From NCBI GenBank assembly GCA_964631205.1, contig CAZVWU010000005.1, positions 19,711-83,710 of the forward strand: a stretch of 64,000 bases of DNA, written 5' to 3'. Of this stretch, positions 8,774 through 28,770 are shown in pieces. How positions within the stretch are numbered: position 1 is the stretch's first letter; the number at the start of each line of letters is the position of its first letter. The notes under the pieces are model-generated. The model saw nothing but the letters and a program-made list of their open reading frames with translations. It was not told the DNA's origin and did not search any database. Made by a program: the position numbers and the translations under genes. Source of the stretch: an uncultured archaeon (GTDB lineage: Archaea; Aenigmatarchaeota; Aenigmatarchaeia; QMZP01; JACQNV01).

Positions 8774-8804
8774 ATTTTCATCACTTCTATTTATTTTGGG
8801 ATCT

Positions 8805-8827
8805 CAGCCCTTTTTCTAAAAGGGCTG
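8805..8827. terminator. Perfect 10-bp stem hairpin (CAGCCCTTTT-tct-AAAAGGGCTG) just after the stop of the 902-aa class III gene. Candidate intrinsic terminator or RNA stability element.
   Basis: Palindrome read directly. Followed on the plus strand by ATTTTTC. Related stem GCCCTTT/AAAGGGC occurs at 36268..36284. Confidence 0.4.
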
Positions 8828-8839
8828 ATTTTTCATATT

Positions 8840-11548: not shown

Positions 11549-11610
11549 ATATACTATAATTGAGCTAACCTGAATAAAAATAAAATATCAGAATTAAAGG
11601 GGCATCAAAA

Positions 11611-12969
11611 TCAGTATCTGCCTGCTCTTTCCCAATAATTATCATCAGCTTCTTCTTGGCTGCCCCTTCTTTTAAGCAGCATAAACAAAACAAGGGCCAC
11701 CAGGACTATCACAACTATTATAAGGACTGTCAGGTCGATCCCGCCTTCTGCTTTCTTGGATGTTTTTTGGGCAGGCTGGATTGTCTCCACACTCTCGGTT
11801 TTGTTGGCTGCCTTGTTTGCAAGGTCGCTGAAAGACCTGAGGTCTTCTGCCAAAGTTGAGTCTTTTGACCTTATTATTGCCTGGTTTATATCAGAAAGCG
11901 CTTTGGAGTCCAGTGCTTCTGTTGTTTTTAGCCTGTTTAAGTCGCAGGAAGCTTCGTTTACAGACAACGAACCCTGCAATGTTTTTGTTGCCTGGCCTTT
12001 TACTGATATTGTGAAGGTATACGAACATTCCGACCCTTCGGCCTCTAATTCTATAATTATATTTTCCCTGTTGGATATGGTTTTTGTTGTGGTGTTAAAG
12101 CCGGACTTTAAACCTCTTGGCAAGCTCAGTTCAACTGCATAATCTTTTTCTTCCCCATAGTTCCTTATCTCAAGGTAATATTTTACTGGCTGGCCTTTTT
12201 TTGTAGAGGCTGATTCAGGCATCAGGGTGGCTGAAAAATTGGCGGATGCGAGGGATTCCGGAGGATCCCGGACTGTTAAAAGTGTGGATGCTGTTTTTGT
12301 GCAGCCTGGGAGAGCGCAGCCCCTCACGACGGCTCTCACATTCAGGATGTTGTCTGTCTGGGTTCTTATCTTCTGGCTGACCACAATTTTTTCCTGGGGC
12401 CTTGTTGTGACAGATAAGGTTTTCCCTGTTTCCAGGATTTCAATGTCCATGTCTAGCCTTATGGTTGAATATATTTCTATCTGGTATTCGCCTTCTATGT
12501 TGGGCTCCAGATATGTCACGGGATCCATCCTTATATCGAAGTATTTCTGGTTCAGGCTCACCACAGCGCAGGGGTTCCCGCTTCCTGTGTCCTGGTCTTC
12601 CTGTTCAGCAACACAGATCCCATAATTGAATTCCTTCTGCTTTCCCCTTGCATCTGCTGTAAACTTAATGATTTTTGTCTGGTTTACAGCCTTTCCAAAG
12701 GTATTGAAGCAGATAGGTATGCTGACAGGGTTTCCAGGGTCAGTGAAGACCTCTGCGCTTGTAAAGTCGCACCATTCGCCGCAATCAGAGCTCAGGCTAA
12801 AAGTTGCAGGGACCCCAAACACGCCAACATCGTCAGGGATTTCAGCATTGATGCATTTCAGCGCCTCCGGCGCCATGGCAAAGTTCGTGCCGTCTTTCAG
12901 CGAGGCTTGAGCGGTTCCGGCAATAACAAGGAAACCTAAAATAAGCATTGCTCCTGTAAGGGATTTCAT
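11611..12969 (-). CDS. Secreted surface protein (signal peptide + C-terminal TM anchor). Paralog of 4845..6251.
   Basis: Start chosen at MKSLTGAMLILGFLVIAGTAQA (signal peptide), 30 nt downstream of the palindromic TATA at 13021. C-terminal TM LTVLIIVVIVLVALVLFMLL followed by KRRG. Confidence 0.7.
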   Translation of the reverse strand: MKSLTGAMLILGFLVIAGTAQASLKDGTNFAMAPEALKCINAEIPDDVGVFGVPATFSLSSDCGEWCDFTSAEVFTDPGNPVSIPICFNTFGKAVNQTKIIKFTADARGKQKEFNYGICVAEQEDQDTGSGNPCAVVSLNQKYFDIRMDPVTYLEPNIEGEYQIEIYSTIRLDMDIEILETGKTLSVTTRPQEKIVVSQKIRTQTDNILNVRAVVRGCALPGCTKTASTLLTVRDPPESLASANFSATLMPESASTKKGQPVKYYLEIRNYGEEKDYAVELSLPRGLKSGFNTTTKTISNRENIIIELEAEGSECSYTFTISVKGQATKTLQGSLSVNEASCDLNRLKTTEALDSKALSDINQAIIRSKDSTLAEDLRSFSDLANKAANKTESVETIQPAQKTSKKAEGGIDLTVLIIVVIVLVALVLFMLLKRRGSQEEADDNYWERAGRY

Positions 12970-13019
12970 AATATTATATTGTTCGACCCGCTTAAAAGAC
13001 AGAAATAGGGCCGCAAAAT

Positions 13020-13031
13020 GCTTTATAAAGC
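13020..13031. promoter_or_regulatory. Palindromic TATA box GCTTTATAAAGC. A likely bidirectional promoter, giving a leaderless transcript of 13054..14043 and a transcript of 11611..12969.
   Basis: Perfect 12-bp palindrome about 28 nt upstream of the GTG start. Identical boxes at 15087..15098 and 60379..60391. CTTATAAAG at 24766..24774. Confidence 0.55.
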
Positions 13032-13053
13032 CTGTTGCCATTCTTAAAATAAG

Positions 13054-14043
13054 GTGAATTTTATTAGCGGCTACCTAAGAGGTTTCATAGACGGGATTTA
13101 TAGTAGGGGCAGAAAAAATTTCAGGGACCTGCTAGCTTTTTCATTGGTTGGGGCTGTTTCTTTCGGATCAATGAAGGGGTATAAATCGTATACAGTGTAT
13201 ATTGAAAGGCGTGAAAAGGAGAGAGCGGCAATAGTAGAAGGGTTCGAGAGCCTTATTGAAGTTGACAGAGACTTAAAGGCAGATTATTCAGAAAAAATAG
13301 GCGCGGAAGCTGCAGAAAGGAAAAGGCTGGAGGCTCAACTCGTAGAGTTGAGAAAAAGATTGGAAAAAGGGATGGGGGATTATTCAACAGAATTAGAAAA
13401 AGACAGGAAAGAGAGGAAAGATTTTATGGCTGAGCTTAAAAAAATCCAGTTTCCCCCTTCCCAGATTCGTGTCGAGTCAACCATTTATCCCGGGCTGACT
13501 GGAAAGCCGTCAACAAAAGAAGAGCGTGCAAAAAAAGCGAGGATTTTGGTTGAGAGAATGAAAGATTCAGGATGCATGGTTAAAAAGAAAGAAATTATGG
13601 CAGAGAGACAAAGCATTGTGCTAGTTAAAAGCCTTGAGACTTCAAGGGGGCGAGCTGTTATTTACTCTATTGAGTGGATAGAAAAAGGAGGAAGAGGTTA
13701 TCAAGAATCTATGCTTGCTCTGGGACTTGATCCGAAAAAACCAATAGATAGTAATGAGATAGAAACCATGGCAAAGAAGTTTTTTGGTTTTTTGGATCAT
13801 TGGGGTGACTCCAGAAAGAGTCTTAGTTATAATGAATCGGCAATGAGGGATGCAGTTTATGAAACTTGCAGAGAAATCGTGATTGATTTTGAGCGCGATG
13901 GCGAACCAGATGGTTTCTTCAGAGACGGGATGAAAAGAGAGCTTGAAAAAGAAGTCGTGGGGATTTTCTACAACGGATTGCTTGATTCTTGCTTACAAGC
14001 CATCCCTGAAACACCCGATCAACCCGCGAACCCTAAAAGGTAG
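13054..14043 (+). CDS. Hypothetical protein, cassette family copy A (conserved N-terminus, variable C-terminal half)
   Basis: GTG start 28 nt after the TATA GCTTTATAAAGC. N-terminal ~90 aa and the last residues (PDQPANPKR) are shared with 15119..16087. The middle is unrelated. Coiled-coil-like region. Confidence 0.7.
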   Translation: MNFISGYLRGFIDGIYSRGRKNFRDLLAFSLVGAVSFGSMKGYKSYTVYIERREKERAAIVEGFESLIEVDRDLKADYSEKIGAEAAERKRLEAQLVELRKRLEKGMGDYSTELEKDRKERKDFMAELKKIQFPPSQIRVESTIYPGLTGKPSTKEERAKKARILVERMKDSGCMVKKKEIMAERQSIVLVKSLETSRGRAVIYSIEWIEKGGRGYQESMLALGLDPKKPIDSNEIETMAKKFFGFLDHWGDSRKSLSYNESAMRDAVYETCREIVIDFERDGEPDGFFRDGMKRELEKEVVGIFYNGLLDSCLQAIPETPDQPANPKR

Positions 14044-14165
14044 TTTTATTTAGGGCTTGCTTTTTGGAACAGCTATAACTGTGACACCATCTGATTCAAC
14101 CGGATCTTTATCATCAATATCTTTTATAGAAGACAGTTTTACTTTTATTTTATAGGGCTGGCCGC
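14044..14165 (-). pseudogene. Remnant of the C-terminal end of a giant-protein gene (paralog of the 3' end of 16090..21345)
   Basis: DNA at 14044-14165 is near-identical to 16088-16210. The minus-strand translation ends ...VTVIAVPKSKP*, like the 1760-aa protein. No upstream ORF continues it. Confidence 0.5.
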
Positions 14166-14274
14166 CCCTGCAATCTGGCCTATATCGCTATCGAAGGGTT
14201 GCATGGCGTCACCTAAGATTGGGGAGGCCTGTTGTTGAGTCTGGTTTATTAATTCCTGTTCCAATTATTGTGAT

Positions 14275-14766
14275 ATGATTCTCATCGACACTTCAGTATA
14301 TATAGCCGCTGAAGAAGATGGCTCTATTGAAAAATTGTTAGAGCAGATTTCAGAAAAGATGTTTATACATTCATGTGATGTTATAGAAAAGGAGATTAAT
14401 CTCGCCGCTGATTTTTTAAGAAGGACCGATAGAAAAATTGAATCAGAAAAATTAAAAGCCATCTATGAAAAAATAAAAGAAGGCAACATTAGAACAAGTG
14501 AAAGGATACTAAGGCTGTCTGAAGACTATCATTCTGAAGCTTCACAGCTCTCTAAAAAGGATCATAAAAAGATAAAAGCCGATTTTTTGATAGTGGCCTC
14601 TGCATCTGTAGCTGGGGTAAAAAAAATCCTGTCTTTTAACAGGAAAACAATGGCATCTGAACAGACCATAAAAGTATACAATATAGTAAATACCAGAAAT
14701 AATTGCAAAACACCTGCATTTTTGACAACAAAAGAAGAATTAAGAAAGCTCTTGGAGTCTCTTTAG
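14275..14766 (+). CDS. PIN-domain-like protein (VapC-like). No cognate antitoxin found.
   Basis: N-terminal MILIDTSVYIA and C-terminal DFLIVASASVAGVKKILSFNRKTM match the PIN acidic-residue layout. Longer (163 aa) than classic VapC. Confidence 0.5.
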   Translation: MILIDTSVYIAAEEDGSIEKLLEQISEKMFIHSCDVIEKEINLAADFLRRTDRKIESEKLKAIYEKIKEGNIRTSERILRLSEDYHSEASQLSKKDHKKIKADFLIVASASVAGVKKILSFNRKTMASEQTIKVYNIVNTRNNCKTPAFLTTKEELRKLLESL

Positions 14767-15086
14767 TTTAAGCCGATTTCTGCGCTCCTTTTCGATATTC
14801 TCATTTACCATTTCATCTATTTCGTCAGCAGCCTGCTCTCTGATAAACCTGGTAAACTCTACAGCATCCATCATTTTTCCATTCACTTCAATCCCTTTTT
14901 TCATGATTTATATATAGGCCGGGTACTTAAATAGCTTGCAGGCTTCAATGGTGTGTCTAATCGGTGTTCATATATTCCGGGAAAAGAGGCCTGTGAAACA
15001 CATGAATCACCGGATATATATTATTGGTTAACCGTTAACTGACTGAAAAGTGTAACCTTAAGAAGTTTACTTTACGCCACCGAATG

Positions 15087-15098
15087 CTTTATAAAGCC
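15087..15098 (+). promoter_or_regulatory. Palindromic TATA box GCTTTATAAAGC for 15119..16087 (leaderless)
   Basis: Same box and the same spacing to the start as the copy at 13020. The surrounding ~45 nt are duplicated. Confidence 0.55.
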
Positions 15099-15118
15099 CC
15101 TTTTCATTTTTTAATAAG

Positions 15119-16087
15119 GTGGATTTTATCAGATACCTAAGCGGTTTGGTGGACGGGATTTATAACAGCAGGAAAACCAGGGACCTGCTCGCTTTTTCAT
15201 TAGTGGCGGCTTTGCCTTTCGCATCAATAAAGGGGTATAAAGCATACACAGGGTATATTGAAAGGCGTGAAAAGGAGAAAGCGGCAATAGTAAAGGGGTT
15301 CGAGGACTTTAGTGAAGCTGAGAAGGCCTTGCGCGCAGATTATTCAGGAAAAATAGGCGCGCTGGAGGCTGAACTCGGGGAGCTGAGAACAAAATTGGAA
15401 AAAATAGGGGACCTTGAAAAAGTCCAGTGGCCAAAGGCAGAGGCAGGACCCTTGCCTATTCCTAAAAAGAAAAAACTTTCACCAGAAGAGAAAAAAGAGG
15501 CCGCTGAGAGGAGGCAGGTTAAAGCCATCAGGCTTGCCAATTACATCAAAAGCACTGCCACTATAGTAAACCATAAAGGGCTTATTGAAATATATTTTGA
15601 AGGCTATGGAGACGAGAGGCGTAGCTTTAACATGATAGAATTCAATTTGCCACTTAAAACTCATCTCGGAAACTGCAATGCGTATTATCTGGAATTTAAT
15701 ACCGGAAATATTTTTGCTGATGACATAAGAAAGATGCTTGTTCTTGGGGTAAATTCAAGAGACCCCAACAAACAATGCTCTTTAGCTGATAGTCTTGCTT
15801 CCGATACTATCAGAGTTAACAATAGAGATGCATCAGATCCCAGAAACGGCAATATACGTGTATTTCTTGCCGCAAAGAGAAATTTTGAATATGTGATCGG
15901 TGAGCCGGCTAAGTACAGGATATTTGGTGATGCACAGGTAGCGTTTCATAGAGAGGCGGAATGGCTTTTCCCAAACGAAGATGAGATGAACCAAAAATAC
16001 GAAGAATTATTAGACATATTTACAATTGTGGCTTCTACCGCTGAACCTAGCTCTGAAACTCCCAATCAACCCGCGAACCCTAAGTAG
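15119..16087 (+). CDS. Hypothetical protein, cassette family copy B
   Basis: Shares the promoter, N-terminal ~90 aa and terminal ...NQPANPK with 13054..14043. The C-terminal half is different. Confidence 0.7.
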   Translation: MDFIRYLSGLVDGIYNSRKTRDLLAFSLVAALPFASIKGYKAYTGYIERREKEKAAIVKGFEDFSEAEKALRADYSGKIGALEAELGELRTKLEKIGDLEKVQWPKAEAGPLPIPKKKKLSPEEKKEAAERRQVKAIRLANYIKSTATIVNHKGLIEIYFEGYGDERRSFNMIEFNLPLKTHLGNCNAYYLEFNTGNIFADDIRKMLVLGVNSRDPNKQCSLADSLASDTIRVNNRDASDPRNGNIRVFLAAKRNFEYVIGEPAKYRIFGDAQVAFHREAEWLFPNEDEMNQKYEELLDIFTIVASTAEPSSETPNQPANPK

Positions 16088-16089
16088 TA

Positions 16090-19000
16090 TTATTTGGGCT
16101 TGCTTTTTGGAACAGCTATAACCGTGACCTCATTTGATTCAACATCTCCCTGAATGCCACCCATTTCGAGCTTTACTTTTATTTTGTAAGAGGTGCCGGC
16201 TGTTACTGATTCCCTTTCTACCAAAAGTTCAGCCCTGCCATTATTAATTATTGCTTTCTGTTTGGCGTCAGTATTATCAATTGCCAGCAATGCTTCAGCA
16301 TGTTCCTCACCATTTTCCACTTTTACTTTAAAAGAAAGTTTTGTACCATCAAAATTTTCATCAAACACTGTGATATGAGGCACCTTAATCTCCCTCTTTA
16401 CTTCTTTTATCTTTTCGTCCTCGAGGGTTGCCTCATTTTTAAAGTCCTCAAATGATTGGTCTGTGAAATGAAGGCGGAGCATATCTTTTATAGGTGTTGC
16501 TTGTTTTATAGTCAGATCACTGTTTTGCCTTAATTTTTCGTTTCCAGCTGCCTTTACATGGCCAGGGAAAAAGGTTATTATCATGTTATTCTGCAACTCA
16601 GCGAAGGTGTTAGAACTGGATTTTGAATTCAGATCATTTATGTTATCCTTTATTAGTTGTGCAGTTTTCTCCCTAATTAACTCAAATTCGTAATTAGTGG
16701 CATCATTTTTAAATTTTATTATCAGATTATCTGTGGGTTTGCCATCAGGCCCTTTTTCTTTTTGTATACTCACCACCCTAAACGGCAGGGAAGAGTAGAC
16801 CCCACTGTCAAACTTGCCTCTGGAAAGGCTGTCTTGCTTGAATTTTACGGTACCTGTTTTTTTGCCAATAAATTCGCCTACCGTTTTGGTATTTGGGTGG
16901 ACTGCTTCCTCAATGATTATGGAATCAATTATGTCTGAAATACTGGGGTCTGACAGCTTCAGATTTTTATTCTCAATTGCCAGCGGCCTTGCTCCAGTCT
17001 CTGAAAATGCTATCAAAACTCCTTCTTTGAGTTGTTCACGGTTTTTGATTGTTGCAGCATTTGGATGTTTTGTTGTGTCTGCGAAATACATCACATCGCC
17101 CGGACTCAGGTCAGCTATTTTAGTAGCGGATTTCAGGTTCCTGAAAACTGATTTTCCTATTTTTGTGGTATCAGATCTGGAGACATCAGCTTTACTGTAG
17201 CCGAAATCTACATCAAGCTCGATTTTTCTCTTCTCGGGATCCCCAGACTTTGGTATGCAGGTATATTTAACCACATACGTCCCCTGATCTAAATCAGGTA
17301 TCTTTGCTTCGGCGTCATCCGGCTTTAGCACGATTCTCTTTGACTTGCCTGTTGAGAAGGCTCCTCCAACATAGTCGGCTTTTTTCCCGTATTCCACCAA
17401 ACAGTTTTCAAGTTCAACAGCTTCACCCTGGATTTTTTTATTTGAGAGCATGACAATCGCCTCTTTCTGGTTAACCCTGTATTCGCATGTCCTTGTGAGC
17501 TCTGATTTTGTGCTGTCTACCCTTATTCCATGTATAGCCACGCCAAGTTCTTTTGACGGGACCAGCCATAGCTTCCCTTCCTCTGGGCATCCTTCAAGCG
17601 GCTGACCTATGTTGGCGGCAATATTCCTTCCGGGCAGCTGTGAGCAGTCCTGCCTGTAGGTGACCGTGAGGCTTTCACGCTGCGTCAGCTTGGGGCAGTC
17701 ATATTCAAACACATATTCGCCGTCTGCAGGGTCGCCTATGTTGAAGATCGCAGGCGCATTCTGGGGACTGCTTGGGCCTGCCGTGAGGCCTAACAGCTGC
17801 TTGAGGCTTCTCGGCTCTGCAGTTGCGTCCTTTATGCCTGTGAGGATAAGGGATGTCTTGGATTTTATTATATTTGTGTGCTGGGTAAGCTTGATGTCAG
17901 TTAGCGTGTCTTTACCTATTTCATCTTTTATTGATTTGGCCTCTACTTCTATCTGGGCTGCTGCATTTTTGACAGCTGCGCTTGCAGTTATTGTTTTGTC
18001 ATTCGGGTCTGCAAGCCTGCTGGCCTGGCTTTGGATTTCAAACGCCAGCGACTCTATCCCCTCAAGAGTCTTTTTCTTTTGATTTTGCAGGGCGTTTTTA
18101 TCGCCCAGGTAATCTGGTTTCTCCAGCTCCCTGTCTATCCTTCTCAATTCAACTGCGTAAGACGTCTCAAGGTTAGTGGCACGGACATCTATATTGTTGA
18201 CAGCTGTCCTCAGCGCGTCTGTGACCCCCGAAGCCTGCTTCCTGTATTTGATGTCCCAATTCCCGCCGCAGACGAAATTGTTGCCGTTCTCAAGCTCAAA
18301 TATCACCTGGTCCTGCCCGCATGCCTCATTTGTCCTCTCGAAGTTCTGGCCTGTCTGTGTGTTCTTTGCAGTCATTGAAAACCCGATCTTCCTGTACTGG
18401 TTTGCATAGTTTTGGAAGTCAGTTGTCCTCTGGTCAACATAATTATTCAGACCTTGGAGTGTATTTGATGCAGCCCCAAGATACTGGTTGTTGCAGGATG
18501 TAAATTGCGCAACGCAGTTCAGCGCGGCCTGCCCTGCCTGCTGGGGGTTCTCAGGGTCTGCCCCATTGCAGAGGCCGTCGCCGATATTGTGGATGTTAAT
18601 GTCCATGCACAGCATGAAAGACTGTATTTCCGTGAGCGCTTTCGCCATCTGCGTGTGGATGCTCATCATGGTCTCAGCAACTTTGCAGACAGCAAGGCCT
18701 GCAGTTGTCAGCTGCCCAATCCCCTGCAGGAAAGCCCCTATCGCAGTAAAAGCAGTATTCTGCCCCTTGTCATTGGCCTGGTTGGCGGCATTGTTGATTA
18801 TTGTGATCGGATTCCCCCTTGCTTCCGGGTTTTTCGGGTCGCCTATCCCAGTCACAGTTCCAGGGGTAAGGCCAGAAATTACTTGTGGATGAAATGCTGA
18901 TTGTGGCAGTTTCGTGGCCCTTAAGTTTGCTTTATTTGGATCTATCCTAACAAGATCGTCTGCGTATTGGTTTTGTTCACCGTCAACAGATAATATGTGA

Positions 19001-21345
19001 CCCTCAAGCAGGCCATCGTAGGTAGTTCCTGTTTTTACAAAACTAATAGATTTACCATCAATGCTCCCAGCATAACCAGTTGCACTAAAAATAGTTCCGC
19101 CTGGATATAATGCTGGAGGTGGAATAGCTTGAATGCCTTCTATATCACTTCCTTTTACTGTTTTTATCTGCCCATTCCTTAAAACTCTAAAAGTGTTCTC
19201 ACCTGCTTTACTATTAGTGCCAACTTTGTCTATAAGCGTGGCCGGACCGCCAGACTCAAAAATCCCTTCATCAACTGTAACCTTTGTTCCAGGCGGCGGC
19301 GGATTATTTTCATCGAAGTTCCCAGCCGAACCAGGAAGATTCTCGTCATTTTGAGTCCATTCATACCAGCTCTTTACCCCGCCTGCAACGCTGCTGACAA
19401 TATCCGGGACGAAATCCTTTACCAGACCTACAATTGCCAGCCCTCCCACAATCAGAGACATCGTCGCCATTATCTTGGCATAGGTGACTGAGGTTTTGAC
19501 TATCTCGACGCATTCCTTGAGGATGTCTTTGGCATCGCCGACGCCAGCTTTGAGGTCGCTGAAGATGTCTCGGATTTCTTTTTCAGAAGTTTTTATTATT
19601 TCGTTCAGGCTTTTGACTGTCTGGGAGACTGAGATGTCCTGCAGGGTTGATTTTAGCTCGACTGATTTTTGGTTAGAGAGCCTGGCTTTTGCAAAAAGGA
19701 CGTTGTTCCTGATTGTGAAGTCGCCTTGCCTGCAGTCCTTAAACTTTTCCAGCTTGAACTCGCACTCTGTCCTTCCACCCGGAGCAGGCTTGCAGCCTGT
19801 GAGCGGTATGATTTTGTGGCCGAATGGTTTTCTCTCTTTTGGCCTTTTGAGCTTGGCGTCTTCAACAGCTTTCCTGCAGGCTTCCCTTGATTTTTCGTCT
19901 GACCTTATTTTGCTGCAGGTTTTTGTTTCCTGGGTCAGCAAAGCAACCTGCTGGAAACAGCTGTCCTTTATTTTGGCGTCGCTTATCCTATCGCATAAGG
20001 TGTGGTCCTGCAGGGACAGGGCTCCATTCGCAAAGCAGGCGTCCCTGTCTGGCTTGGCGCCTTTATCGCAGGTTGTTATGACATCGCTCCTTGTTGCCAA
20101 CGATTCAGTGTCCCTGTCCAGCTCAACCCAAACTTCATCAACCTGAGTCCCTGTTGGCACGCTTATAAGTTCATAAGTAAGCTTTGTCGGGTGCCTCCTT
20201 TCGCATGAAGTAAATTCAGTCTCTTCAAACCTCCCTACTATCCCTGTTTTTGTTTTGTCTATGCACAGGCCCGGGTCATTTTTGTTGTTCGCGTCAAAAC
20301 TGCATACCAGGTTAGGCTCACCACAACCGTCTGAAAAATCACGGCAGCAGTTCTCCCTTGTCTCGCCTGCATCCAGGTCAGGGACCCCATTCCCGCAATC
20401 AAGCTTTGGCTTTGGCGCAATTGTAAAAGGGTTCCCTATAAGATTGACTGTTGACGGGAAAACCAGCCCATACTCCTTTAAAATCTTTTCTGTGTCGACG
20501 AATCCTTCCCTATCTGTTTTCCTGACATCAAATTTTTCAGGCGTGTCTGCCTGGTCAATCCCGGATATATGGAGGCTTGCAATCTGCGAATTCGGGTCCT
20601 GGTTGATTTTGTTTGGTATTACCCTTGAAACCCAGCCTTTTGGGATGACATTTTTATTTTTTATAAAGTCTGCAGTCAGGTTGAGGAGCTTTGAATCAGA
20701 CAAGACCACATCCACACTGTCCAATTCATTATCCTGCAATATTTCCCAGTCGCTCTGGGAATTCCCTATACCATGCCTTTTTATGACGTCCCAATATCCA
20801 AACCACTGCCTTTTGCCTGCTATTTCCAATGTGGCGAATGTCAGCAGCCTTGCTTCCTGCTGGCCGAAATTAAGGGTGCCAACATCTTTTGCATTCGATA
20901 TGTCAAGCCAGTTTGCCTGGTAGTCAACAAAGGTCGAGAATTTAATTGCAGACTTCTTGTTTGCCTGGACTGACCGGATGCAGTCTGTTGGGTCCTGCAG
21001 CTTGAATTTTTCATCTATGCAGGGGATTATGTAAACATCATTTATCAGGACGCTTGGCTGGGAATTTATTTTAATCCCGATTGAAGTGAACTCCGGCTCC
21101 CATTGCCCTTGGACAGGGCTTTTGTCTTCAACTTTTATCTGCTTATTGACCAAGCTCGAAGGCGCTCCCAAGGAAACTGGAGTCGGCGGCTGCAACCTTG
21201 TTGATCCATCTGGCGCAAAGAAATTCACCTGGATTACTGTTGCAAAAGACTGGGCAGTTGAGAGCGGCAAGGTCAGCATCAAATAGATAGAGAAGACTAC
21301 AGCTGACAAAAATGCATTTTGCTTGCTAAAGATTTTTGCTTTCAT
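16090..21345 (-). CDS. Giant secreted/membrane protein (about 1750 aa) with internal hydrophobic segments and Cys-rich modules
   Basis: Start chosen at MKAKIFSKQNAFLSAVVFSIYLMLTLPLSTAQS (signal peptide). The track start at 21372 is also possible. CGNGVPDLDAGETRENCC Cys-rich motif and an internal TM-like stretch IMATMSLIVGGLAIVGLV. Convergent with 15119..16087 (3-nt gap). Confidence 0.8.
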   Translation of the reverse strand: MKAKIFSKQNAFLSAVVFSIYLMLTLPLSTAQSFATVIQVNFFAPDGSTRLQPPTPVSLGAPSSLVNKQIKVEDKSPVQGQWEPEFTSIGIKINSQPSVLINDVYIIPCIDEKFKLQDPTDCIRSVQANKKSAIKFSTFVDYQANWLDISNAKDVGTLNFGQQEARLLTFATLEIAGKRQWFGYWDVIKRHGIGNSQSDWEILQDNELDSVDVVLSDSKLLNLTADFIKNKNVIPKGWVSRVIPNKINQDPNSQIASLHISGIDQADTPEKFDVRKTDREGFVDTEKILKEYGLVFPSTVNLIGNPFTIAPKPKLDCGNGVPDLDAGETRENCCRDFSDGCGEPNLVCSFDANNKNDPGLCIDKTKTGIVGRFEETEFTSCERRHPTKLTYELISVPTGTQVDEVWVELDRDTESLATRSDVITTCDKGAKPDRDACFANGALSLQDHTLCDRISDAKIKDSCFQQVALLTQETKTCSKIRSDEKSREACRKAVEDAKLKRPKERKPFGHKIIPLTGCKPAPGGRTECEFKLEKFKDCRQGDFTIRNNVLFAKARLSNQKSVELKSTLQDISVSQTVKSLNEIIKTSEKEIRDIFSDLKAGVGDAKDILKECVEIVKTSVTYAKIMATMSLIVGGLAIVGLVKDFVPDIVSSVAGGVKSWYEWTQNDENLPGSAGNFDENNPPPPGTKVTVDEGIFESGGPATLIDKVGTNSKAGENTFRVLRNGQIKTVKGSDIEGIQAIPPPALYPGGTIFSATGYAGSIDGKSISFVKTGTTYDGLLEGHILSVDGEQNQYADDLVRIDPNKANLRATKLPQSAFHPQVISGLTPGTVTGIGDPKNPEARGNPITIINNAANQANDKGQNTAFTAIGAFLQGIGQLTTAGLAVCKVAETMMSIHTQMAKALTEIQSFMLCMDINIHNIGDGLCNGADPENPQQAGQAALNCVAQFTSCNNQYLGAASNTLQGLNNYVDQRTTDFQNYANQYRKIGFSMTAKNTQTGQNFERTNEACGQDQVIFELENGNNFVCGGNWDIKYRKQASGVTDALRTAVNNIDVRATNLETSYAVELRRIDRELEKPDYLGDKNALQNQKKKTLEGIESLAFEIQSQASRLADPNDKTITASAAVKNAAAQIEVEAKSIKDEIGKDTLTDIKLTQHTNIIKSKTSLILTGIKDATAEPRSLKQLLGLTAGPSSPQNAPAIFNIGDPADGEYVFEYDCPKLTQRESLTVTYRQDCSQLPGRNIAANIGQPLEGCPEEGKLWLVPSKELGVAIHGIRVDSTKSELTRTCEYRVNQKEAIVMLSNKKIQGEAVELENCLVEYGKKADYVGGAFSTGKSKRIVLKPDDAEAKIPDLDQGTYVVKYTCIPKSGDPEKRKIELDVDFGYSKADVSRSDTTKIGKSVFRNLKSATKIADLSPGDVMYFADTTKHPNAATIKNREQLKEGVLIAFSETGARPLAIENKNLKLSDPSISDIIDSIIIEEAVHPNTKTVGEFIGKKTGTVKFKQDSLSRGKFDSGVYSSLPFRVVSIQKEKGPDGKPTDNLIIKFKNDATNYEFELIREKTAQLIKDNINDLNSKSSSNTFAELQNNMIITFFPGHVKAAGNEKLRQNSDLTIKQATPIKDMLRLHFTDQSFEDFKNEATLEDEKIKEVKREIKVPHITVFDENFDGTKLSFKVKVENGEEHAEALLAIDNTDAKQKAIINNGRAELLVERESVTAGTSYKIKVKLEMGGIQGDVESNEVTVIAVPKSKPK

Positions 21346-21359
21346 ATGTTGGTTTATTC

Positions 21360-23444
21360 CTAAACAACACAACTTTTTATGGTAGTTGAATTGACTGGCA
21401 CGAAACTAAGCGGCAGCGAGACCCCCACCTGGTTGCCGCACTCGACAGTGACATTGATCAATTTAAGCCTTATTTGGGCTGAGGCAACCACGTTTTCTTC
21501 GATGACCCGCTGGTTTTCTGTGTCAGCTGCTTTTTGGTTTTTGACCTCAACAGGATCGTCTGGATCTACAGGGTTTGGCAGGGGCTTGTAAGGATAGCCT
21601 TCTGTCAAAACAGGGTTGTAGAACCACAGGTCTGTTGTCCCCTCTGGTATTTTCCCGGCAGCATCAAAGCCGCCGAGTATAGAATCTCCTTTTTGGACGA
21701 CTGTTGTTAAAGCGACATCCTCGAGGGTTGGGATTAAATTTGTAGTAAGCTCTTGGTCGCTTGTCTTCACAAAGAACGGCGCTGTTTCTCCGCCATATCC
21801 TATTGACAGTGTAAAGCTCTCTGAATTTGGCCTGACATCAGCAACAGTATAAACCCCTGCCCTTTCCACCATTTCCATGTTGAAGATATGGATTTTAACC
21901 AGGCTTAATCTTGCGAGCCTTATTGTTTTATCCTTGACTGAATCTGAGCTGGAAACCTCCTTGAACAGCTTGTGGTCTTTCTCAGTTATCTCCAGCTGGC
22001 TGATCCCGCAAGGGACAAGCGCTTCCAGGACGCCTTCGCTGTCTGTTTTCCCAAGCGGGCAATAAGAGTAGAAAACGTCCGCATCTGCCACAGCCCCTGC
22101 AGCATCCACGGCAGTTATTTTTGCAGGGCACCTTCCGACTGTGCACCTTTTGACTTCTTCATCAAAGAACCCTAACGTCAGGCCCAAGTCCTTCCAGTCA
22201 CCTGGCTTATACCCGTTCACAAATGTATGGAATGCAAATTTGAGTTTTAGATCTTCATCCCCAACTTCTGCCACAACAGGGAACAGCAAGAAGTATGAAA
22301 TCCTATAAGGTGGCGAGACGCAAAGGGTTGTATACCCAAAGTTTTCTGTCCTTATAATGACACGCCCTGGATCTTCGCCATTGTTCTGGAAAACCTGGAA
22401 GGACTTTTCGTCCAGCTCGTTTCCCAAAGAAAATTTCACATCAAGGTTTGTAAATACCGGCAATACTCCAGGCAGATAAGATGTCCTGTTAGTTATGCCC
22501 TTTGGGACCTTGCCAGCAGTATAGATGTTGTCGAGAGTGCCGGCTATCAGATCCTCGACATCAGGCTTTAGGCTGAACCAAGTCTTTACAATAGGAGGTG
22601 TCCCGCAACCTGTAAGGATCCCCTCGCTGGGTATTTTTGGCCTGCCAAATTCATCTGATTCTCGGTAGGCGCGTATTGAGTTTATTATAAACCTCTCAAA
22701 CAACCTGTTCTCTTCAACCCCGCTAACCCTATTCACAGGCTCGCCATCTTCATCGTAACCTGTGATCTGCAGCTCTTTTTTCTGGCTCTTCTCTATAAGC
22801 TCATTCCCAAAATTTATTGCCTTTCCAAGGCTCGAAGGGATTTTTACTTCTATAGGCTTGCCAAAGTCATAGCCCTCCACAGACACTGGCAGATCGATTT
22901 TTAACTGGACATCATTATCATTGATTTTAACTTCTACGCTCCGCGGGCTCCCTATCGAAACATCTTTTCCCTTTACACTTTGGTAGGACTTTGGGTCTAT
23001 TCCCTTTAAAGATTCTTTTAACCCGGCTGAAAGGGTTGCCTCAAAATCCGCCCTTGTCCTAGTTATGGTAGTGTTCCCGTACTGCCAGAATACAACTTTA
23101 TTTCCCAGATAATCAAGCGCGGGGGGCTTTGGATCAGAGTCGAGATCGAGATAGCCGCCGTTTTGGGCGATTTTCCTTATCAGCTGTGTTGCATCAGAAG
23201 AGATTCTTCGCTGGATGTCAGAGTTTAAGGAATTTTTCAGCGCAGAAACAGACTCAGGCTCTGGAGGCAGCAAGCTTATTGTTTTGGTTGCAAAGAGAAC
23301 CCCCACAACAGCAACAACCACTATACCTAATACAATTATAATTTCTGCCTGGCCTTTCAGCCCTTTTCTTCCCGAAGAAAAGTGTTGAGATCCCAAAAGA
23401 AGGGGGTTACCTATGCTGTTTTGTTTATTATTCCGGCCTTTCAT
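21360..23444 (-). CDS. Giant protein with a class III (pilin-like) signal peptide. Paralog of 8840..11548.
   Basis: ...GRKGLKGQAEIIIVLGIVVVAVVGVLF. N-terminal ~80 aa align with the 902-aa protein. Start chosen at MKGRNNKQ. The track start at 23480 is 36 nt further upstream and also possible. Confidence 0.75.
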   Translation of the reverse strand: MKGRNNKQNSIGNPLLLGSQHFSSGRKGLKGQAEIIIVLGIVVVAVVGVLFATKTISLLPPEPESVSALKNSLNSDIQRRISSDATQLIRKIAQNGGYLDLDSDPKPPALDYLGNKVVFWQYGNTTITRTRADFEATLSAGLKESLKGIDPKSYQSVKGKDVSIGSPRSVEVKINDNDVQLKIDLPVSVEGYDFGKPIEVKIPSSLGKAINFGNELIEKSQKKELQITGYDEDGEPVNRVSGVEENRLFERFIINSIRAYRESDEFGRPKIPSEGILTGCGTPPIVKTWFSLKPDVEDLIAGTLDNIYTAGKVPKGITNRTSYLPGVLPVFTNLDVKFSLGNELDEKSFQVFQNNGEDPGRVIIRTENFGYTTLCVSPPYRISYFLLFPVVAEVGDEDLKLKFAFHTFVNGYKPGDWKDLGLTLGFFDEEVKRCTVGRCPAKITAVDAAGAVADADVFYSYCPLGKTDSEGVLEALVPCGISQLEITEKDHKLFKEVSSSDSVKDKTIRLARLSLVKIHIFNMEMVERAGVYTVADVRPNSESFTLSIGYGGETAPFFVKTSDQELTTNLIPTLEDVALTTVVQKGDSILGGFDAAGKIPEGTTDLWFYNPVLTEGYPYKPLPNPVDPDDPVEVKNQKAADTENQRVIEENVVASAQIRLKLINVTVECGNQVGVSLPLSFVPVNSTTIKSCVV

Positions 23445-23484
23445 ATTCCTTGAGCTAGAAAAGAAAGAATTATTTTGCATATTT

Positions 23485-23576
23485 TTCTAGTGCAGGTCTT
23501 TTGGCTTCAGCTGGAAATAGGTTTTTGACCGATTTGATTAGAAGACCTATTTCGTCCATTTAGCCAAAGAAGTGCA
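23485..23576. repeat. Intergenic element copy A (TTCTAGTGCAGGTC ... long central region ... AAAGAAGTGCA)
   Basis: Conserved termini shared with copies B-F. Inner pairing GTCTTTTGGC / GCCAAAGAAG. Lies between the stop of 23632..24117 and the start of the 706-aa gene. Confidence 0.7.
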
Positions 23577-23631
23577 CACTATATAATTATCAGTTTTCTC
23601 TTATAAGCATGGATCTATAACAGTGTTATAT

Positions 23632-24117
23632 CTATTTCTCATAGACAATAAAAACAATATCAATGTCTTGCCCTCTTTTGGAGATTTTCTGGTTCACTTT
23701 ATATATGCCAGTCTTGTTTTCCAGGGCCTTGCTGAGTGGCGTGACAGTGTCTCCATATTTAAAGTAGTAGTCCAACTTCGGATCAAGTGTTTTTTGTATA
23801 TAGACATCAGTCAGCGCATCCGCTATCTCCTCGCACCTTGCATCACCGCATCTCCAGCTCGGGGTTGTCTGCGAGCAATAAAGGACATCGGCCACAGTCT
23901 TGCATTTTTCTATATCCCCTGAATAACCGCTGTCTGTCTTTAGAAGCGCTGTCACCAAGCTGTTTGCATGCAGTTTTATGTAGTCTTCCCCCCTAAAAAT
24001 GTCAGCAGTAGAGATAAGCAAAGCAATAGTGCCTATGCTTACCACAATAACCAGAACCAGAGTTATCAGCATTGTCTGCCCGTTCAGGCCTTTTCTGTTT
24101 GAAATTTCCGTTTTCAT
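23632..24117 (-). CDS. Small pilin-like protein with a class III signal peptide
   Basis: MKTEISNRKGLNGQTMLITLVLVIVVSIGTIALLI. 161 aa. Confidence 0.7.
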   Translation of the reverse strand: MKTEISNRKGLNGQTMLITLVLVIVVSIGTIALLISTADIFRGEDYIKLHANSLVTALLKTDSGYSGDIEKCKTVADVLYCSQTTPSWRCGDARCEEIADALTDVYIQKTLDPKLDYYFKYGDTVTPLSKALENKTGIYKVNQKISKRGQDIDIVFIVYEK

Positions 24118-24135
24118 ATACTTCGTCTATTCACC

Positions 24136-24714
24136 TTAGGTTGGCACCCTGACTGTCATGAGGCCGAGATCGACCCTGTTTTCTATCGATCGGAATATAT
24201 TAACAGGTATTGATAAACCCCTGTTTTTTTTAGACTGTATGCTAAAGCAGATTTCTCTGCAGAATGTCCAGCTATTGCATCCTTTTTCCTGGCCAAAATT
24301 CAGCGGATCGCAATCGTTCTTTTCTTCGCCTAAAATAATTTTGTCAATTGTTACACATGCATCGCCGACAAGTTTTTTTATTTGCTCGCAGCCCTCCTTG
24401 TCATAAGGGCCTGTAAATGTGACTAGCTTTGAATCATCGAATATAAATTCCTCCTTTGTGAGAAAGCTTGCTTTGGCTACAAGGCTCGATGCTAACAGGA
24501 TTTTATGAATGTCCTCCTTGAAACTGGCTCCCTTGGATTTTGTTGACTCAAAACCAATAAAAAAGAAAAGCGCTGCTACAACAACCATCAGTATAAGGAC
24601 GGCCATCAGGAGATGCTCCATTATGCCGAACTGGCCCTTCAATTTTGAGGGAGGGGTGGGAACCGCAGGTTTCCACATGCCGAATTGTCCGCTTATTTTT
24701 TTTAAAAAAACCAT
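24136..24714 (-). CDS. Pilin-like protein with a class III-type signal
   Basis: ...PSKLKGQFGIMEHLLMAVLILMVVVAALFFFIGF. Internal N-terminal duplication KISGQFGMWKP / KLKGQFGIMEH. The start is uncertain. Confidence 0.6.
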   Translation of the reverse strand: MVFLKKISGQFGMWKPAVPTPPSKLKGQFGIMEHLLMAVLILMVVVAALFFFIGFESTKSKGASFKEDIHKILLASSLVAKASFLTKEEFIFDDSKLVTFTGPYDKEGCEQIKKLVGDACVTIDKIILGEEKNDCDPLNFGQEKGCNSWTFCREICFSIQSKKNRGLSIPVNIFRSIENRVDLGLMTVRVPT

Positions 24715-24786
24715 ACTTATATTTGGCTTTCCGTAAATATATTGTCCAATATTTGCAAAAGGCTTATAAAGCTTGGTGGCAATTTA

Positions 24787-25356
24787 ATGGATATGCTGAA
24801 AATAGGAGAAAAAGTTCCGGACTTTGAAACAGATGTATACCACAATGAACAGATTAGAAAAGTCAAGTCAGCAGACTTCAAAGGCAAATGGCTTGTCGTT
24901 ATGTTTTATCCAGCTGATTTCACTTTTGTATGTCCGACAGAGCTGGAGGAAGCTGCTTTGCTTTATGAGGAATTCAAGAAAGTCGGCGCAGAAATAATGA
25001 GCGTGAGCACAGATACAGGATATGTCCACAAGGCATGGCATGATGTCTCGCCTGCAATTAAAAAAATAAAATATCCCATGGCCGCAGACCCCACCGGAAA
25101 ATTGAGCAGGATGTTTGGGACCTACATGGAAGACACTGGCCTTGCGCTCAGGGGAACATTCATAATTGATCCGAATGGAGTTCTGAAAGCATATGAAATG
25201 CATGACCTGAGCATTGGAAGAAGCGCAGAAGAGACGCTGAGAAAATTGCAGGCTGCAAAATTTGTTGCTGAGAATGCAGGGCAGGTTTGCCCAGCTAACT
25301 GGAAGCCCGGGAAAAGCACATTGAAACCGGGATTGGATTTGGTGGGGAAGATATAG
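24787..25356 (+). CDS. Peroxiredoxin (typical 2-Cys Prx/AhpC family)
   Basis: Peroxidatic Cys in FTFVCPTE and resolving Cys in GQVCPANWKPG. Start moved to MDMLKIGEK, because the track's TTG start would include the TATA box. Confidence 0.9.
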   Translation: MDMLKIGEKVPDFETDVYHNEQIRKVKSADFKGKWLVVMFYPADFTFVCPTELEEAALLYEEFKKVGAEIMSVSTDTGYVHKAWHDVSPAIKKIKYPMAADPTGKLSRMFGTYMEDTGLALRGTFIIDPNGVLKAYEMHDLSIGRSAEETLRKLQAAKFVAENAGQVCPANWKPGKSTLKPGLDLVGKI

Positions 25357-25385
25357 AAAATTCTTTTTAGGGCAAAGAAGGAAAA

Positions 25386-25979
25386 GTGATTTATATGCAA
25401 TTCGAACCGAAAAATTTTGAGAGTTTGTTGGGTACTGCGGGATTTTCAGACATTCTTCTAAAAAACCATTTCACACTTTACCAAGGATATGTGACGAATA
25501 CGAACAAGCTGGCTGATGACTTAGCTGCTTCATTGAAAGCTGGCTGGGCAGGAACCCCCGGATATTCTGAACTGAAAAGGAGGTTTGGCTGGGAGTTTAA
25601 TGGGATGAGGTTGCATGAGCTGTATTTTGGGAATATGGTTAAGGGAGGCTCGCCTGTTGATAAAAATTCCCATCTGTTCAAAAAAATCGTGGAAGATTTC
25701 GGCTCATGGGAAAACTGGGAAAAAGATTTCAAGTCAACAGGTTCGATGCGCGGGATTGGGTGGACAATACTTTATTTTGACAAAAATTCCAACAGATTAT
25801 TCAATGTATGGGTGAATGAGCATGACTTTGGGCATCTTGCAGGATGCGTTCCGTTGCTGGTTCTTGATGTTTTCGAGCACGCATATATGATTGATTATGG
25901 ATTGAAAAAAGCGGATTATATTGAGGCTTTCTTTAAGGCGATTGATTGGAAGGCTGTGTCTGAAAGATTTAATTTGTAA
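25386..25979 (+). CDS. sod: Fe/Mn superoxide dismutase family protein
   Basis: C-terminal D-x-F-E-H-A-Y (LDVFEHAYMIDYG) and an N-terminal H...YVTNTNKL block match the Fe/Mn SOD fold. Some canonical His positions look diverged. Confidence 0.75.
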   Translation: MIYMQFEPKNFESLLGTAGFSDILLKNHFTLYQGYVTNTNKLADDLAASLKAGWAGTPGYSELKRRFGWEFNGMRLHELYFGNMVKGGSPVDKNSHLFKKIVEDFGSWENWEKDFKSTGSMRGIGWTILYFDKNSNRLFNVWVNEHDFGHLAGCVPLLVLDVFEHAYMIDYGLKKADYIEAFFKAIDWKAVSERFNL

Positions 25980-25980
25980 A

Positions 25981-27459: not shown

Positions 27460-27477
27460 ATGTATATGTTTTCTTTT

Positions 27478-27520
27478 GGGTTATAAGGCTTTTCTTTTAC
27501 AAAAGAAAAGGGTATAAATT
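27478..27520 (-). promoter_or_regulatory. Promoter module of the thioredoxin-NHL gene: TATA-like boxes flanking a 10-bp inverted repeat (CTTTTCTTTT-ac-AAAAGAAAAG)
   Basis: Minus-strand reading TTTATACCC-hairpin-CCTTATAACCCAAAAGAAAAC, then about 8 nt, then ATG. The same architecture recurs at 29995..30030 upstream of the pilin-like gene 29404..29970. Confidence 0.5.
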
Positions 27521-27587
27521 CAGCCATTCAAAATCCTCCGGGAACTCTGGAGCTTTTTTTAATTTTTCAAAAAATCCAGACATAGAA

Positions 27588-28688: not shown

Positions 28689-28736
28689 CACTGGTCTCCT
28701 ATAGGGGCTTTACTTCCACATAGCCGCCTTTGTTTG

Positions 28737-28770
28737 CACTTCTTTTCTGAAGAAAAGACCTGCACTAGAA
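28737..28770. repeat. Intergenic element copy B (inverted orientation), flanked by 31-bp direct repeats at 28704..28736 and 28772..28802
   Basis: GCACTTCTTTTCTGAAGAAAAGACCTGCACTAGAA. Central palindrome CTTTTC-TGAA-GAAAAG. Contains the stop (CTA) of 28765..29244. Flanking repeat GGCTTTACTTCCACATAGCCGCCTTTGTTTG occurs twice. Confidence 0.7.

Follow-up and report, generated by a model that had tools for sequence, protein, structure and literature searches.

Two copies of a small gene, A and B, lie on the plus strand of the window (the whole 64-kb stretch of archaeal DNA analysed here), the second of them running convergently into the 3′ end of a giant gene; all features are listed in Table 1. 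These are the only two copies of the small gene in the window. Each is preceded by a promoter block with the same 12-nt palindrome, which ends 22-23 nt 5′ of the GTG start, and for A this spacing suggests a leaderless transcript. The protein of the small gene is predicted to begin with a conserved hydrophobic segment and a coiled coil and to continue into a variable alpha/beta domain. In A the hydrophobic segment, a weak one, would lie at residues 23-37, a long helix would occupy ~40-130, and the alpha/beta domain would cover ~155-316.

Table 1. Features of the locus, with positions in the window.
Feature	Position	Strand	Description
S gene	11611..13041	-	476-aa ORF; Sec signal and C-terminal membrane anchor (hydrophobic segments 24-42, 437-455)
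Promoter block of A	13010..13053	+	palindromic, TATA-like GCTTTATAAAGC at 13020-13031, ending 23 nt before GTG
Small gene A	13054..14043	+	329 aa, alpha type
Giant-gene 3′ stub	14050..14181	-	43 codons, stop at 14050-14052, alpha type; no start or gene body
PIN-like gene	14275..14766	+	163 aa; between the two duplicated units
54-aa ORF	14740..14904	-	convergent with the PIN-like gene, overlapping its 3′ end; annotated as a gene by both ENA and Logan
Promoter block of B	15076..15118	+	same palindrome as A, at 15086-15097
Small gene B	15119..16087	+	322 aa; constant N-terminus and beta-type body
Constant 5′ part of B	15119..15387	+	codons 1-~90; left homology arm of the exchange
Exchanged module, beta allele	15388..17126	both	B codons ~91-322 (+, to 16087) and giant codons ~1415-1760 (-, 16090-17126)
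Giant surface protein gene	16090..21372	-	ORF of 1760 aa; signal peptide; one strong hydrophobic segment (633-651)

A and B have in common their promoter, about 100 N-terminal codons, the last 10 codons (both proteins end in ETPxQPANPK) and part of the 3′ flank. The N-terminal ~100 residues show 61% amino acid identity (BLASTP, E = 1e-38 for the full proteins), and the shared DNA falls into repeat blocks: 13010-13061 vs 15076-15127 (the promoter block, direct repeat D4, 71% identity, with 16 nt identical around the palindrome), 13064-13368 vs 15126-15403 (82-86% identity, with a 21-nt indel), 13997-14100 vs 16044-16143 (78-90% identity) and 14135-14154 vs 16169-16188 (90% identity). The common ends described in a first-pass annotation of this DNA are therefore real, although the shared N-terminus extends to ~97-107 codons rather than ~90, and the ~120 nt of common downstream DNA forms a patchwork rather than a continuous stretch. 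Across the common N-terminal part dS is 0.30 and dN 0.19, whereas nucleotide identity is near-random in the middle. That the two middles are altogether unrelated, as had been claimed, is ruled out by a pairwise match past the conserved WP motif (E = 2.6e-5; z = 9 over shuffles, in part owed to the shared tail) and by motifs common to all family members ([QP][FW]P, TKEER..K, a V.Y.IEW strand and LG..PK); they are distant, anciently diverged homologues.

The 1760-aa open reading frame of the giant gene begins at an upstream TTG, the NCBI annotation giving instead a 1751-aa protein from the ATG at 21345, and its stop codon is separated from that of B by 2 nt, not the 3 nt first counted. Its N-terminal ~1000 aa share 26-30% identity with P0008 and with the G protein of locus L016 and constitute a conserved body, unlike the C-terminal ~760 aa, for which no relatives were found. 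A minus-strand stretch downstream of A (14053..14181) corresponds to the final 40 residues of the giant protein, at 56% over 43 columns (tblastn E = 3.5e-5); its translation ends in GGQPYKIKVKLSSIKDIDDKDPVESDGVTVIAVPKSKP before the stop, and its closest match is the giant-gene tail of metagenome contig L006 (86.6% nt identity). This confirms the remnant of a giant-gene tail, but the further proposal of a second giant gene is not needed: the stub probably marks a duplication or displacement boundary, a duplicated unit having ended 43 codons into the giant gene, and such a boundary explains it better than does decay of an independent giant gene.

On the other side of A, the divergent S gene likely has its true start at the ATG at 12969 (MKSLTGAM...). 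Its orthologue in contig L004 (56% identity) is also followed by a small gene, P0006, and S thus marks the ancestral small-gene position. The PIN-like gene matches Pfam PIN at E = 6.8e-4 (20.7 bits, under the 23.6-bit cut-off), is identical in contigs L006 and L007, and is probably a later insertion. A search for a VapBC arrangement found no co-directional antitoxin gene before it; its sole small neighbour is the convergent, overlapping 54-aa ORF, which had no match in Pfam, PHROG or PADLOC. By eye, the neighbouring genes of 902, 706 and 161 aa have starts like class III signal peptides (basic residues, G, a small residue or Q, then a hydrophobic helix), namely RKGLKGQTEIIIILAIAIV, RKGLKGQAEIIIVLGIVVV and RKGLNGQTMLITLVLVIV respectively, as well as strong hydrophobic segments; none matched a pilin model in profile searches.

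Comparison with a second strain shows an exchange at this locus directly. Contig L006 matches window positions 3054..15293 without a mismatch over 12.2 kb, has three mismatches in the constant part of B (15294, 15376 and 15382), and differs densely from 15388 onwards: roughly half of the positions differ between 15388 and 17126, after which identity resumes (17127..17265). Within this block, column identity to L006 ranges from 0.28 to 0.57 in the B part and from 0.35 to 0.88 in the giant part, and it is 100% on either side. A single swapped block of ~1.74 kb thus takes in the final ~346 codons of the giant gene along with the C-terminal two thirds of the small gene. Its breakpoints, both mapped to ~10 bases, fall on one side within the conserved 5′ portion of the small gene and on the other within the giant-gene body. 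The two giant C-terminal alleles (last 346 aa) have 56% amino acid identity, with dS 0.63 and dN 0.36, and the bodies of the small proteins only ~20-25%. Exchange by homologous recombination between conserved flanks is accordingly shown by comparison of strains, beyond what could be inferred from paralogues; the cassette exchange proposed earlier gains direct support, except that its unit also takes in the 3′ kilobase of the giant gene. The genomes concerned are near-clonal and come from groundwater-type metagenomes (SRR8863434 is one source run; the project is described in PMC11549363).

To the right of the block, contig L011, from the same assembly as L006, starts exactly at the breakpoint and is 100% identical to the window from 17127 to 34202; its overlap with L006 is 139, the assembler's k. 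The left junction of the beta allele is found also in L009, from a different assembly, as far as 15420; the last 26 nt of L009 had no match among the sequences compared. The beta allele is otherwise known from one NCBI contig, so that its independent support amounts to 33 nt of the left junction (L009) and none of the right, and exact searches with B and with the 706-aa neighbour returned no further contigs. Two live-slot alleles were recovered in all. Contigs L006, L007 and L008 each encode the exact A protein (DNA 99.95-100% identical to the window across A), and the unit of promoter, A and 43-codon stub is identical in every recovered contig.

All sequences were assembled from short metagenomic reads, contig ends and k-mer overlaps fall at the breakpoints, and B and the 1751-aa giant protein each occur on one contig only in the protein collection; one of the two versions might therefore be a chimeric join across shared repeats. 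We regard this as very improbable: both reading frames are open and in frame over both junctions in both versions, the left beta junction recurs independently in L009, along its giant part the divergent block stays homologous and colinear, as alleles should, and the layout recurs in unrelated samples.

In the slot of B, L006 carries a gene (B′) with the B N-terminus followed by an A-like body (77.6% nt identity to window 13432..13995). A and B′ of L006 are 62% identical in amino acids, with dS 0.36 for the N-terminal part and 0.50 beyond it. Divergence is thus even along the two adjacent units of L006, as expected of tandem duplicates, but not within the window, where the middle of B has been replaced; a tandem duplication very probably took place at some point. 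It is nevertheless highly unlikely that ordinary duplication and divergence, with the ends conserved by stronger purifying selection alone, account for the whole locus, and the L006 comparison contradicts them as a complete explanation. They leave unexplained the 1.74-kb difference between B and B′ beside a mismatch-free left flank of 12.2 kb, the unsaturated dS (0.30) beside a saturated middle, and the discordant groupings of N- and C-terminal parts described below; the non-coding promoter and the functionless stub are conserved too.

Programmed or frequent switching within a genome, in which gene conversion would copy stored alpha and beta blocks into an expression site in the manner of silent-cassette antigenic variation, would yield a mixed population with identical flanks. 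It is in keeping with the absence of SNPs in 12.2 kb to the left of the first mismatch and 17 kb to the right of the block, with the breaking of assemblies at or near the cassette (L007 at 15250, L009 near 15420, L011 at 17127), with mosaic patches between the copies, and with an orphan cassette with a 97% handle in contig L002. We think it unlikely, however, as neither block has a further copy in the 64-kb window, A is too diverged from B′ (38% amino acid difference) to have been the donor, and window scans revealed no recombinase and no inverted or flanking site-specific repeats. The direct orientation of the repeats and the absence of a recombinase also rule out inversion of the shufflon kind. 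The 0 SNPs across ~29 kb of flank would fit either within-genome switching from an unseen donor or an assembly-graph effect.

The small-gene family is rare and mosaic in its relationships. An exhaustive HMMER search yielded four matches among 1.84 billion representative proteins, where a word-indexed homology search with B retrieved B itself only and missed A. The two parts of the family members group discordantly: the N-terminal parts place A with B (109 bits) and P0005 with P0006 (104 bits), but by the C-terminal parts A goes with P0006 (82 bits), the best partner of B is P0005 (40 bits), and B vs P0006 is not significant. The nearest C-terminal relatives of A are B′ of L006 and P0006; that of the B body is P0005, yet it is distant. 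The small gene has 26% amino acid identity to its positional orthologue, against 42-57% for neighbouring genes, and is evolving fast.

The convergent, abutting layout noted at first pass has proved recurrent, the small gene being paired in this way with a giant-gene C-terminus in three lineages. It is absent from the more distant locus L016, and is therefore an accessory gene. In a distant relative, L002 holds an orphan giant C-terminus of ~268 codons, with a 200-nt handle 90-97% identical to the live gene, past which amino acid identity to that gene drops to 46-49%. Contig L014 shares an overlap of exactly 55 nt with L002 in the promoter region of the small gene, so that two copies of the small-gene 5′ region are implied; the layout of the window recurs there. 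A scan of genome representatives matched the L002 contig alone, and a scan of viral contigs found no relatives.

The variable halves gave no significant match to a toxin, immunity or enzymatic fold, or to any other domain or fold. Searches of A, B, B′, P0005, P0006 and the giant C-terminus against Pfam, NCBIfam, PHROGs and PADLOC returned coiled-coil noise only (DUF444, FapA and a tape-measure family), with no toxin domain in the giant C-terminal 400 aa, where a new type of toxin could escape such searches, and no immunity family in A, B or B′; the giant protein matched no Pfam family at E ≤ 0.01, CARDB included. A PDB sequence search with the small-family profile returned only the BAP31 coiled coil (E ~0.4). 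Modelled by AF2 on its own, B gave no usable structure (pLDDT 44), and the model of A, built from a 4-sequence alignment (pLDDT 61.7), gave a best, non-significant Foldseek match in the PDB to a T3SS-chaperone-like protein (E 0.66). For the small protein neither a domain or fold nor a signal peptide or firm membrane topology was found, its hydrophobic segment being just ~15 residues long. Neither an Rfam search of 12800..17400 nor a tRNA scan of the window gave a hit, and no secretion ATPase or other secretion component was seen among the window genes scanned.

We consider it likely that a giant archaeal surface protein here carries a polymorphic module exchanged by recombination, and that an older copy of its partner gene has been retained alongside. 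Homologous recombination with a diverged donor would have replaced the 1.74-kb block, giving exactly the observed pattern. The tandem unit would have arisen by duplication of a ~1.17-kb unit, or else as an older module displaced by an incoming one; the PIN-like gene would then have been inserted at the junction of the units, and short gene-conversion patches would have moved between the copies later. The variable domain of the small protein would bind, or be matched to, the variable giant C-terminus, so that joint exchange would be needed, and the pair might set cell-surface specificity in the recognition of kin, partner cells or viruses. Keeping A could then provide compatibility with, or protection against, neighbours still carrying an alpha-type tail. 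Any 1.7-kb tract, it should be said, co-transfers two adjacent genes, so joint exchange is no proof of interaction. The unequal divergence of giant tails (56% identity) and small-protein bodies (~20-25%) is, moreover, not predicted by simple pairwise co-evolution.

More tentatively, it is possible that the locus belongs to an archaeal system of allele-specific recognition, in which giant variable C-termini and convergent, membrane-associated partners would act as matched pairs in kin discrimination or contact-dependent antagonism. Alpha and beta types would in that case be older than the genus split, maintained by balancing selection and reshuffled by recombination, and orphan partners would widen compatibility or protection; the protein families making up such a system would be ones without known relatives. 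Recombination-swapped polymorphic surface and effector loci are central to bacterial competition and kin recognition, but in archaea few examples are on record, most of them predictions. Should the pairing be functional, this would be a new archaeal recognition or conflict module; two giant-tail alleles and three small-protein alleles could serve as constructs.

In phage tail fibres, the C-terminal specificity region at the fibre tip is swapped as a cassette together with a small cognate partner, the assembly chaperone (Mu S/U, T4 gp37/gp38). The window locus, unlike these cassettes, shows no similarity to phage proteins (PHROGs, viral contigs), has no invertase or inverted repeats, and lies in a chromosomal context among archaeal housekeeping genes.

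The combination of variable module, partner and orphan copy resembles bacterial polymorphic toxin/immunity loci, with no toxin detected. The CdiA-CT/CdiI and Rhs-CT/RhsI systems described by Zhang et al. (2012, PMC3482391) likewise pair a large exported protein, conserved in its N-terminal body and variable at its C-terminus, with a co-varying adjacent partner; C-termini are replaced by homologous recombination, and orphan modules with a large-gene fragment as handle stand beside the live gene (A with its stub in the window, the ~268 codons in L002). By this analogy the giant C-terminal ~350 aa could be a contact-delivered toxin, the small protein its immunity protein and A an orphan immunity gene, in line both with the logic set out for polymorphic toxins (PMC3482391) and with the orphan immunity arrays attributed to effector displacement in Vibrio cholerae (PMC5361080); L006, with A beside an alpha-type live module, has the look that a retained protection from kin would give. 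We find this reading doubtful. Beyond the lack of a detectable toxin or immunity domain, the two giant-tail alleles are homologous rather than distinct in fold, the partner gene has a promoter of its own and runs convergently, not co-directionally, and a protein of ~330 aa with a long coiled coil is atypical of immunity proteins. No linked secretion machinery was found among the window genes scanned, and the junctions of the window (ending FRNLKS) and of L002 (ending NPIAGT) have no demarcation motif in common. The archaeal host is a further departure, as is the fact that the partner gene itself contains one of the homology arms.

The T6SS orphan immunity arrays of V. cholerae, as reported by Kirchberger et al. 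(2017, PMC5361080), likewise keep an older partner gene intact beside a live pair, and form mosaics by homologous recombination without specific sites, with near-identical flanks around a differing module. The window differs in having one retained copy and a 43-codon stub of the large gene, and in gene orientation, protein families and domain of life, any immunity role here being only putative.

VARTIG of Thermococcales is also archaeal, and has a large secreted protein with a C-terminus made hypervariable by recombination and variable neighbour genes (Makarova et al. 2021, PMC8416519); in that account its function is unknown, it is likened to polymorphic toxin systems, and no close counterpart was found outside Thermococcales. 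Its hallmark is a large protein of the arCOG07710 type with CARDB/Ig domains, the C-terminal Ig domain being hypervariable. The giant protein of the window, in contrast, has no sequence relationship to it and no CARDB/Ig match in Pfam, and clade, neighbour genes and partner family differ, so that the locus is an analogue only. What is seen here, set beside these systems, is an exchange caught between near-clonal archaeal genomes, together with an older copy that has been kept and a parallel from a distant relative.

The protein encoded by A, the first of two small plus-strand genes in the window, was recovered by exact look-up on a second contig, L006 (ENA ERZ27284378, 26.9 kb). Base-by-base comparison limits the dense differences between the two versions to one interval (see table), so the replaced block comprises codons ~91–322 of the second small gene, B, together with codons ~1415–1760 of the convergent giant surface-protein gene. 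B′, the 345-aa small gene in B's slot on L006, has the N-terminus of B followed by an A-like body (77.6% nucleotide identity to A), and the bodies of B and B′ can hardly be aligned. The two giant tails share 56% amino acid identity (dS 0.63, dN 0.36), and that of L006 has 86.6% nucleotide identity to the stub, the giant-tail fragment beside A. Exchange of a two-gene module by homologous recombination at conserved arms, the older unit being retained, is well supported. Such cassette exchange had been proposed in the first-pass annotation; the L006 comparison upholds it with boundaries and history corrected, the core taking in not the small gene's variable part alone, as first supposed, but the giant tail as well.

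The right-hand boundary bears on whether the block could be an artefact of assembly. L011, from the same assembly as L006, has 100% identity to window 17127..34202, ending exactly at 17127; its 139-nt overlap with L006 equals the assembler's k, and the join has the look of an assembly-graph branch. Both reading frames are nevertheless open in both versions, and we give an artefact a low probability. Independent support for the window's allele (beta, that of L006 being alpha) is limited to L009, from a third assembly, which follows that allele for 33 diagnostic nucleotides beyond the left breakpoint. The next 26 nt have no match in the window or among the loci fetched, and bring in a stop after codon 102; a third variant, an insertion or an assembly tip could each account for this end.

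Coordinates of features and intervals (window positions unless another contig is named)
Feature	Contig	Position	Strand	Details
Small gene A	window	13054..14043	plus	
Stub	window	14053..14181	minus	43 residues matching giant protein tail; adjoins A
PIN-like gene and convergent 54-aa ORF	window	14275..14904		
Small gene B	window	15119..16087	plus	
Giant gene	window	16090..21372	minus	Convergent with B
Base-by-base comparison	window vs L006	3054..15293		Zero mismatches
Base-by-base comparison	window vs L006	15294, 15376, 15382		3 isolated mismatches
Base-by-base comparison	window vs L006	15388..17126		Dense differences
Base-by-base comparison	window vs L006	17127..17265		Identical up to L006 contig end
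Terminal 26 nt	L009	679..704		TTTGTGATTTTTTTTAAAAAACCAAG; continues from window 15420
P-G-S module, two copies	window	4845..11548; 11611..13041 with 16090..24714	minus	
P	window		minus	902 and 706 aa; pilin-like signal, by eye
G	window		minus	841 and 1760 aa; middle gene of module
S	window		minus	468 and 476 aa; signal peptide and C-terminal anchor
Candidate class III (prepilin-type) signals	window	8840..11548, 21360..23480, 23632..24117, 24136..24714	minus	By eye
X, C-terminal end	L002	3..296	plus	Convergent with orphan giant C-terminus
Nucleotidyltransferase (NTP_transf_2) and 53-aa ORF	L014	6869..7553		Between G and S
ParE	L016	1253..1713		Upstream of locus
1373-aa protein	window	30241..34362	minus	Big_7 and PKD domains
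Adjacent 768- and 994-aa proteins	window	38535..43852	minus	Laminin_G_3 (concanavalin-like) domains

Repeat finding and alignment confirmed the duplicated layout of A and B described on first pass (promoter, N-terminus, last codons, 3′ flank and giant-gene remnant). The units have promoter blocks in common, with an identical 12-nt palindrome (GCTTTATAAAGC), and share 82–86% identity over ~300 nt of 5′ coding sequence, 78–90% over the last 10 codons and ~55 nt of flank, and 90% over an additional 20-nt patch. Low divergence across the N-terminal 97 codons (dS 0.30, dN 0.19), near-random nucleotide identity in the aligned middles, and conservation of both the non-coding promoter and the functionless stub (which has a stop codon and lacks a start or gene body) indicate that the ends of the units have a much more recent ancestor than the middles. 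The central parts had been called unrelated, which proved not to be so: A and B match after a [QP][FW]P motif (E = 2.6e-5), a helix, strand and loop motif is common to all members of the small-gene family, and the middles are homologous.

The duplicated unit starts at the promoter (13010 / 15076) and reaches 43 codons into the giant gene (14181 / ~16222). The A and B′ genes of L006 (62% amino acid identity; dS 0.36 in the N-terminal part, 0.50 in the rest) look like evenly diverged tandem duplicates. The simplest history would start with duplication of the ~1.17-kb unit, or displacement of an older module by an incoming one, either of which requires one extra event; ~0.9 kb with the PIN-like gene (14275..14766) would then have been inserted, and the live module swapped for the beta allele in the window's lineage. 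Three-way alignment of the tails shows that a patch of A (~14005–14075) matches the window's B, not B′, and that the stub from ~14100 matches the L006 giant tail, not the window's, mosaicism implying that short conversion tracts moved between copies. The window holds only two copies of the small gene. Switching within one genome from unseen donor copies is an alternative that we consider unlikely.

Further members of the N-terminal family, a search for which had been proposed on first pass, were sought with HMMER, exhaustively, across 1.84 billion representative proteins; the four matches at E ≤ 0.001 were A itself, a fragment of B and only two others, P0005 (333 aa) and P0006 (352 aa). P0006 is encoded on L004, a contig in synteny with the window (42–57% identity for P, G, S and the upstream genes), where it takes A's position beside S and is followed by a convergent large-protein gene. 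For the N-terminal parts the grouping follows lineage (A pairs with B, 109 bits; P0005 with P0006, 104 bits). The C-terminal parts cut across lineages: one clear type comprises A, B′ and P0006 (82 bits; z 36–90), and the C-terminal part of B has its closest match in P0005 (40 bits; z 14) and is not related to P0006. These conflicting groupings show that the halves have been reassorted over long periods, and the alpha type is older than the split of these lineages.

P0005 is located on L002, in MAG GCA_964476045.1, with a minus-strand orphan of ~268 giant-like codons, of which a ~200-nt stretch has 90–97% identity to the live giant gene and the sequence past it 46–49% amino acid identity. The end of L014, a contig of the same MAG carrying S, P, G, S, overlaps the P0005 promoter region by exactly 55 nt. 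This implies that the 5′ region of the small gene is present twice, and suggests a gene order of S, small gene X, orphan, P0005, giant, in parallel with the window's S, A, stub, (PIN), B, giant. The C-terminal 97 residues of X show no likeness to any small-gene family member; should its unseen 5′ end turn out, as the 55-nt overlap would indicate, to be the repeated N-terminus of the small genes, X would add a third type of variable body. At L016, a more distant locus, the order is P-G-S-P-G-S without a small gene, which is therefore a clade-specific accessory.

All-against-all comparison found this three-gene module twice in the window, and it is present also in L004, L005, L014 and L016; A and B form a tandem pair in the space between G(1760), the giant gene, and S(476). 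The module resembles an undescribed archaeal cell-surface apparatus. Four proteins of this region begin with candidate class III signals, read by eye, of the forms ..KGLKGQ / ..LNGQ / ..LKGQ, each leading into a strongly hydrophobic helix; no gene for a pilus ATPase or platform protein turned up in the set of window genes scanned. Pfam and NCBIfam scans found no family in the gene block from 2898 to 24714. The region is part of an archaeal chromosome, the window also encoding a Hef-type ERCC4 nuclease, RadB, a wyosine radical-SAM enzyme and RNase P subunits. Toxin-antitoxin-like genes recur in or beside the locus across lineages: the PIN-like gene with its 54-aa ORF in the window, the nucleotidyltransferase with its 53-aa ORF in L014, and ParE in L016. 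The Laminin_G_3 pair constitutes a second surface-protein cluster, unrelated to the P-G-S module; the 1373-aa protein has an internal ~230-nt repeat (33152..33382 vs 33706..33937, 81% identity) and shares a C-terminal domain with a 663-aa protein (36322..38313; 34.5% identity over 171 aa).

The giant protein carries a signal peptide and a single strong hydrophobic segment (633–651). The N-terminal ~1000 aa, rich in cysteine, are conserved between it, P0008 and the L016 G protein; relatives of the C-terminal 760 aa were not found. At the 5′ end of its gene (21345..21372), the 1760-aa length is that of a mechanical ORF from TTG, whereas the NCBI product (1751 aa) starts from an ATG at 21345 (MKAKIFSK...), giving a normal signal peptide and removing what had seemed an overlap with the 706-aa gene upstream. 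Features of the small proteins are a weak hydrophobic segment of 15 residues, a helix of ~90 residues and an alpha/beta domain of ~170 residues; the model has an overall pLDDT of 61.7, with values of 70–86 in parts of that domain.

The locus is best read as a specificity module of the surface protein with its cognate partner, as suggested by the tail-to-tail pairing, which is constant across three lineages, by variation that is concentrated in exactly the small-gene and giant-tail parts, by the speed at which the small gene evolves (26% amino acid identity to its positional orthologue) and by the presence of A unchanged in every recovered contig. Toxin/immunity would be the obvious analogy, drawn from polymorphic toxin systems (PMC3482391) and from orphan immunity gene arrays (PMC5361080), but some of the features that define such systems were not found at this locus, and we think a toxin/immunity function unlikely. 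The nearest archaeal precedent is VARTIG, as outlined in PMC8416519, although it has no sequence relationship to the window locus, which is of a known kind, here in archaea and made of proteins without known relatives.
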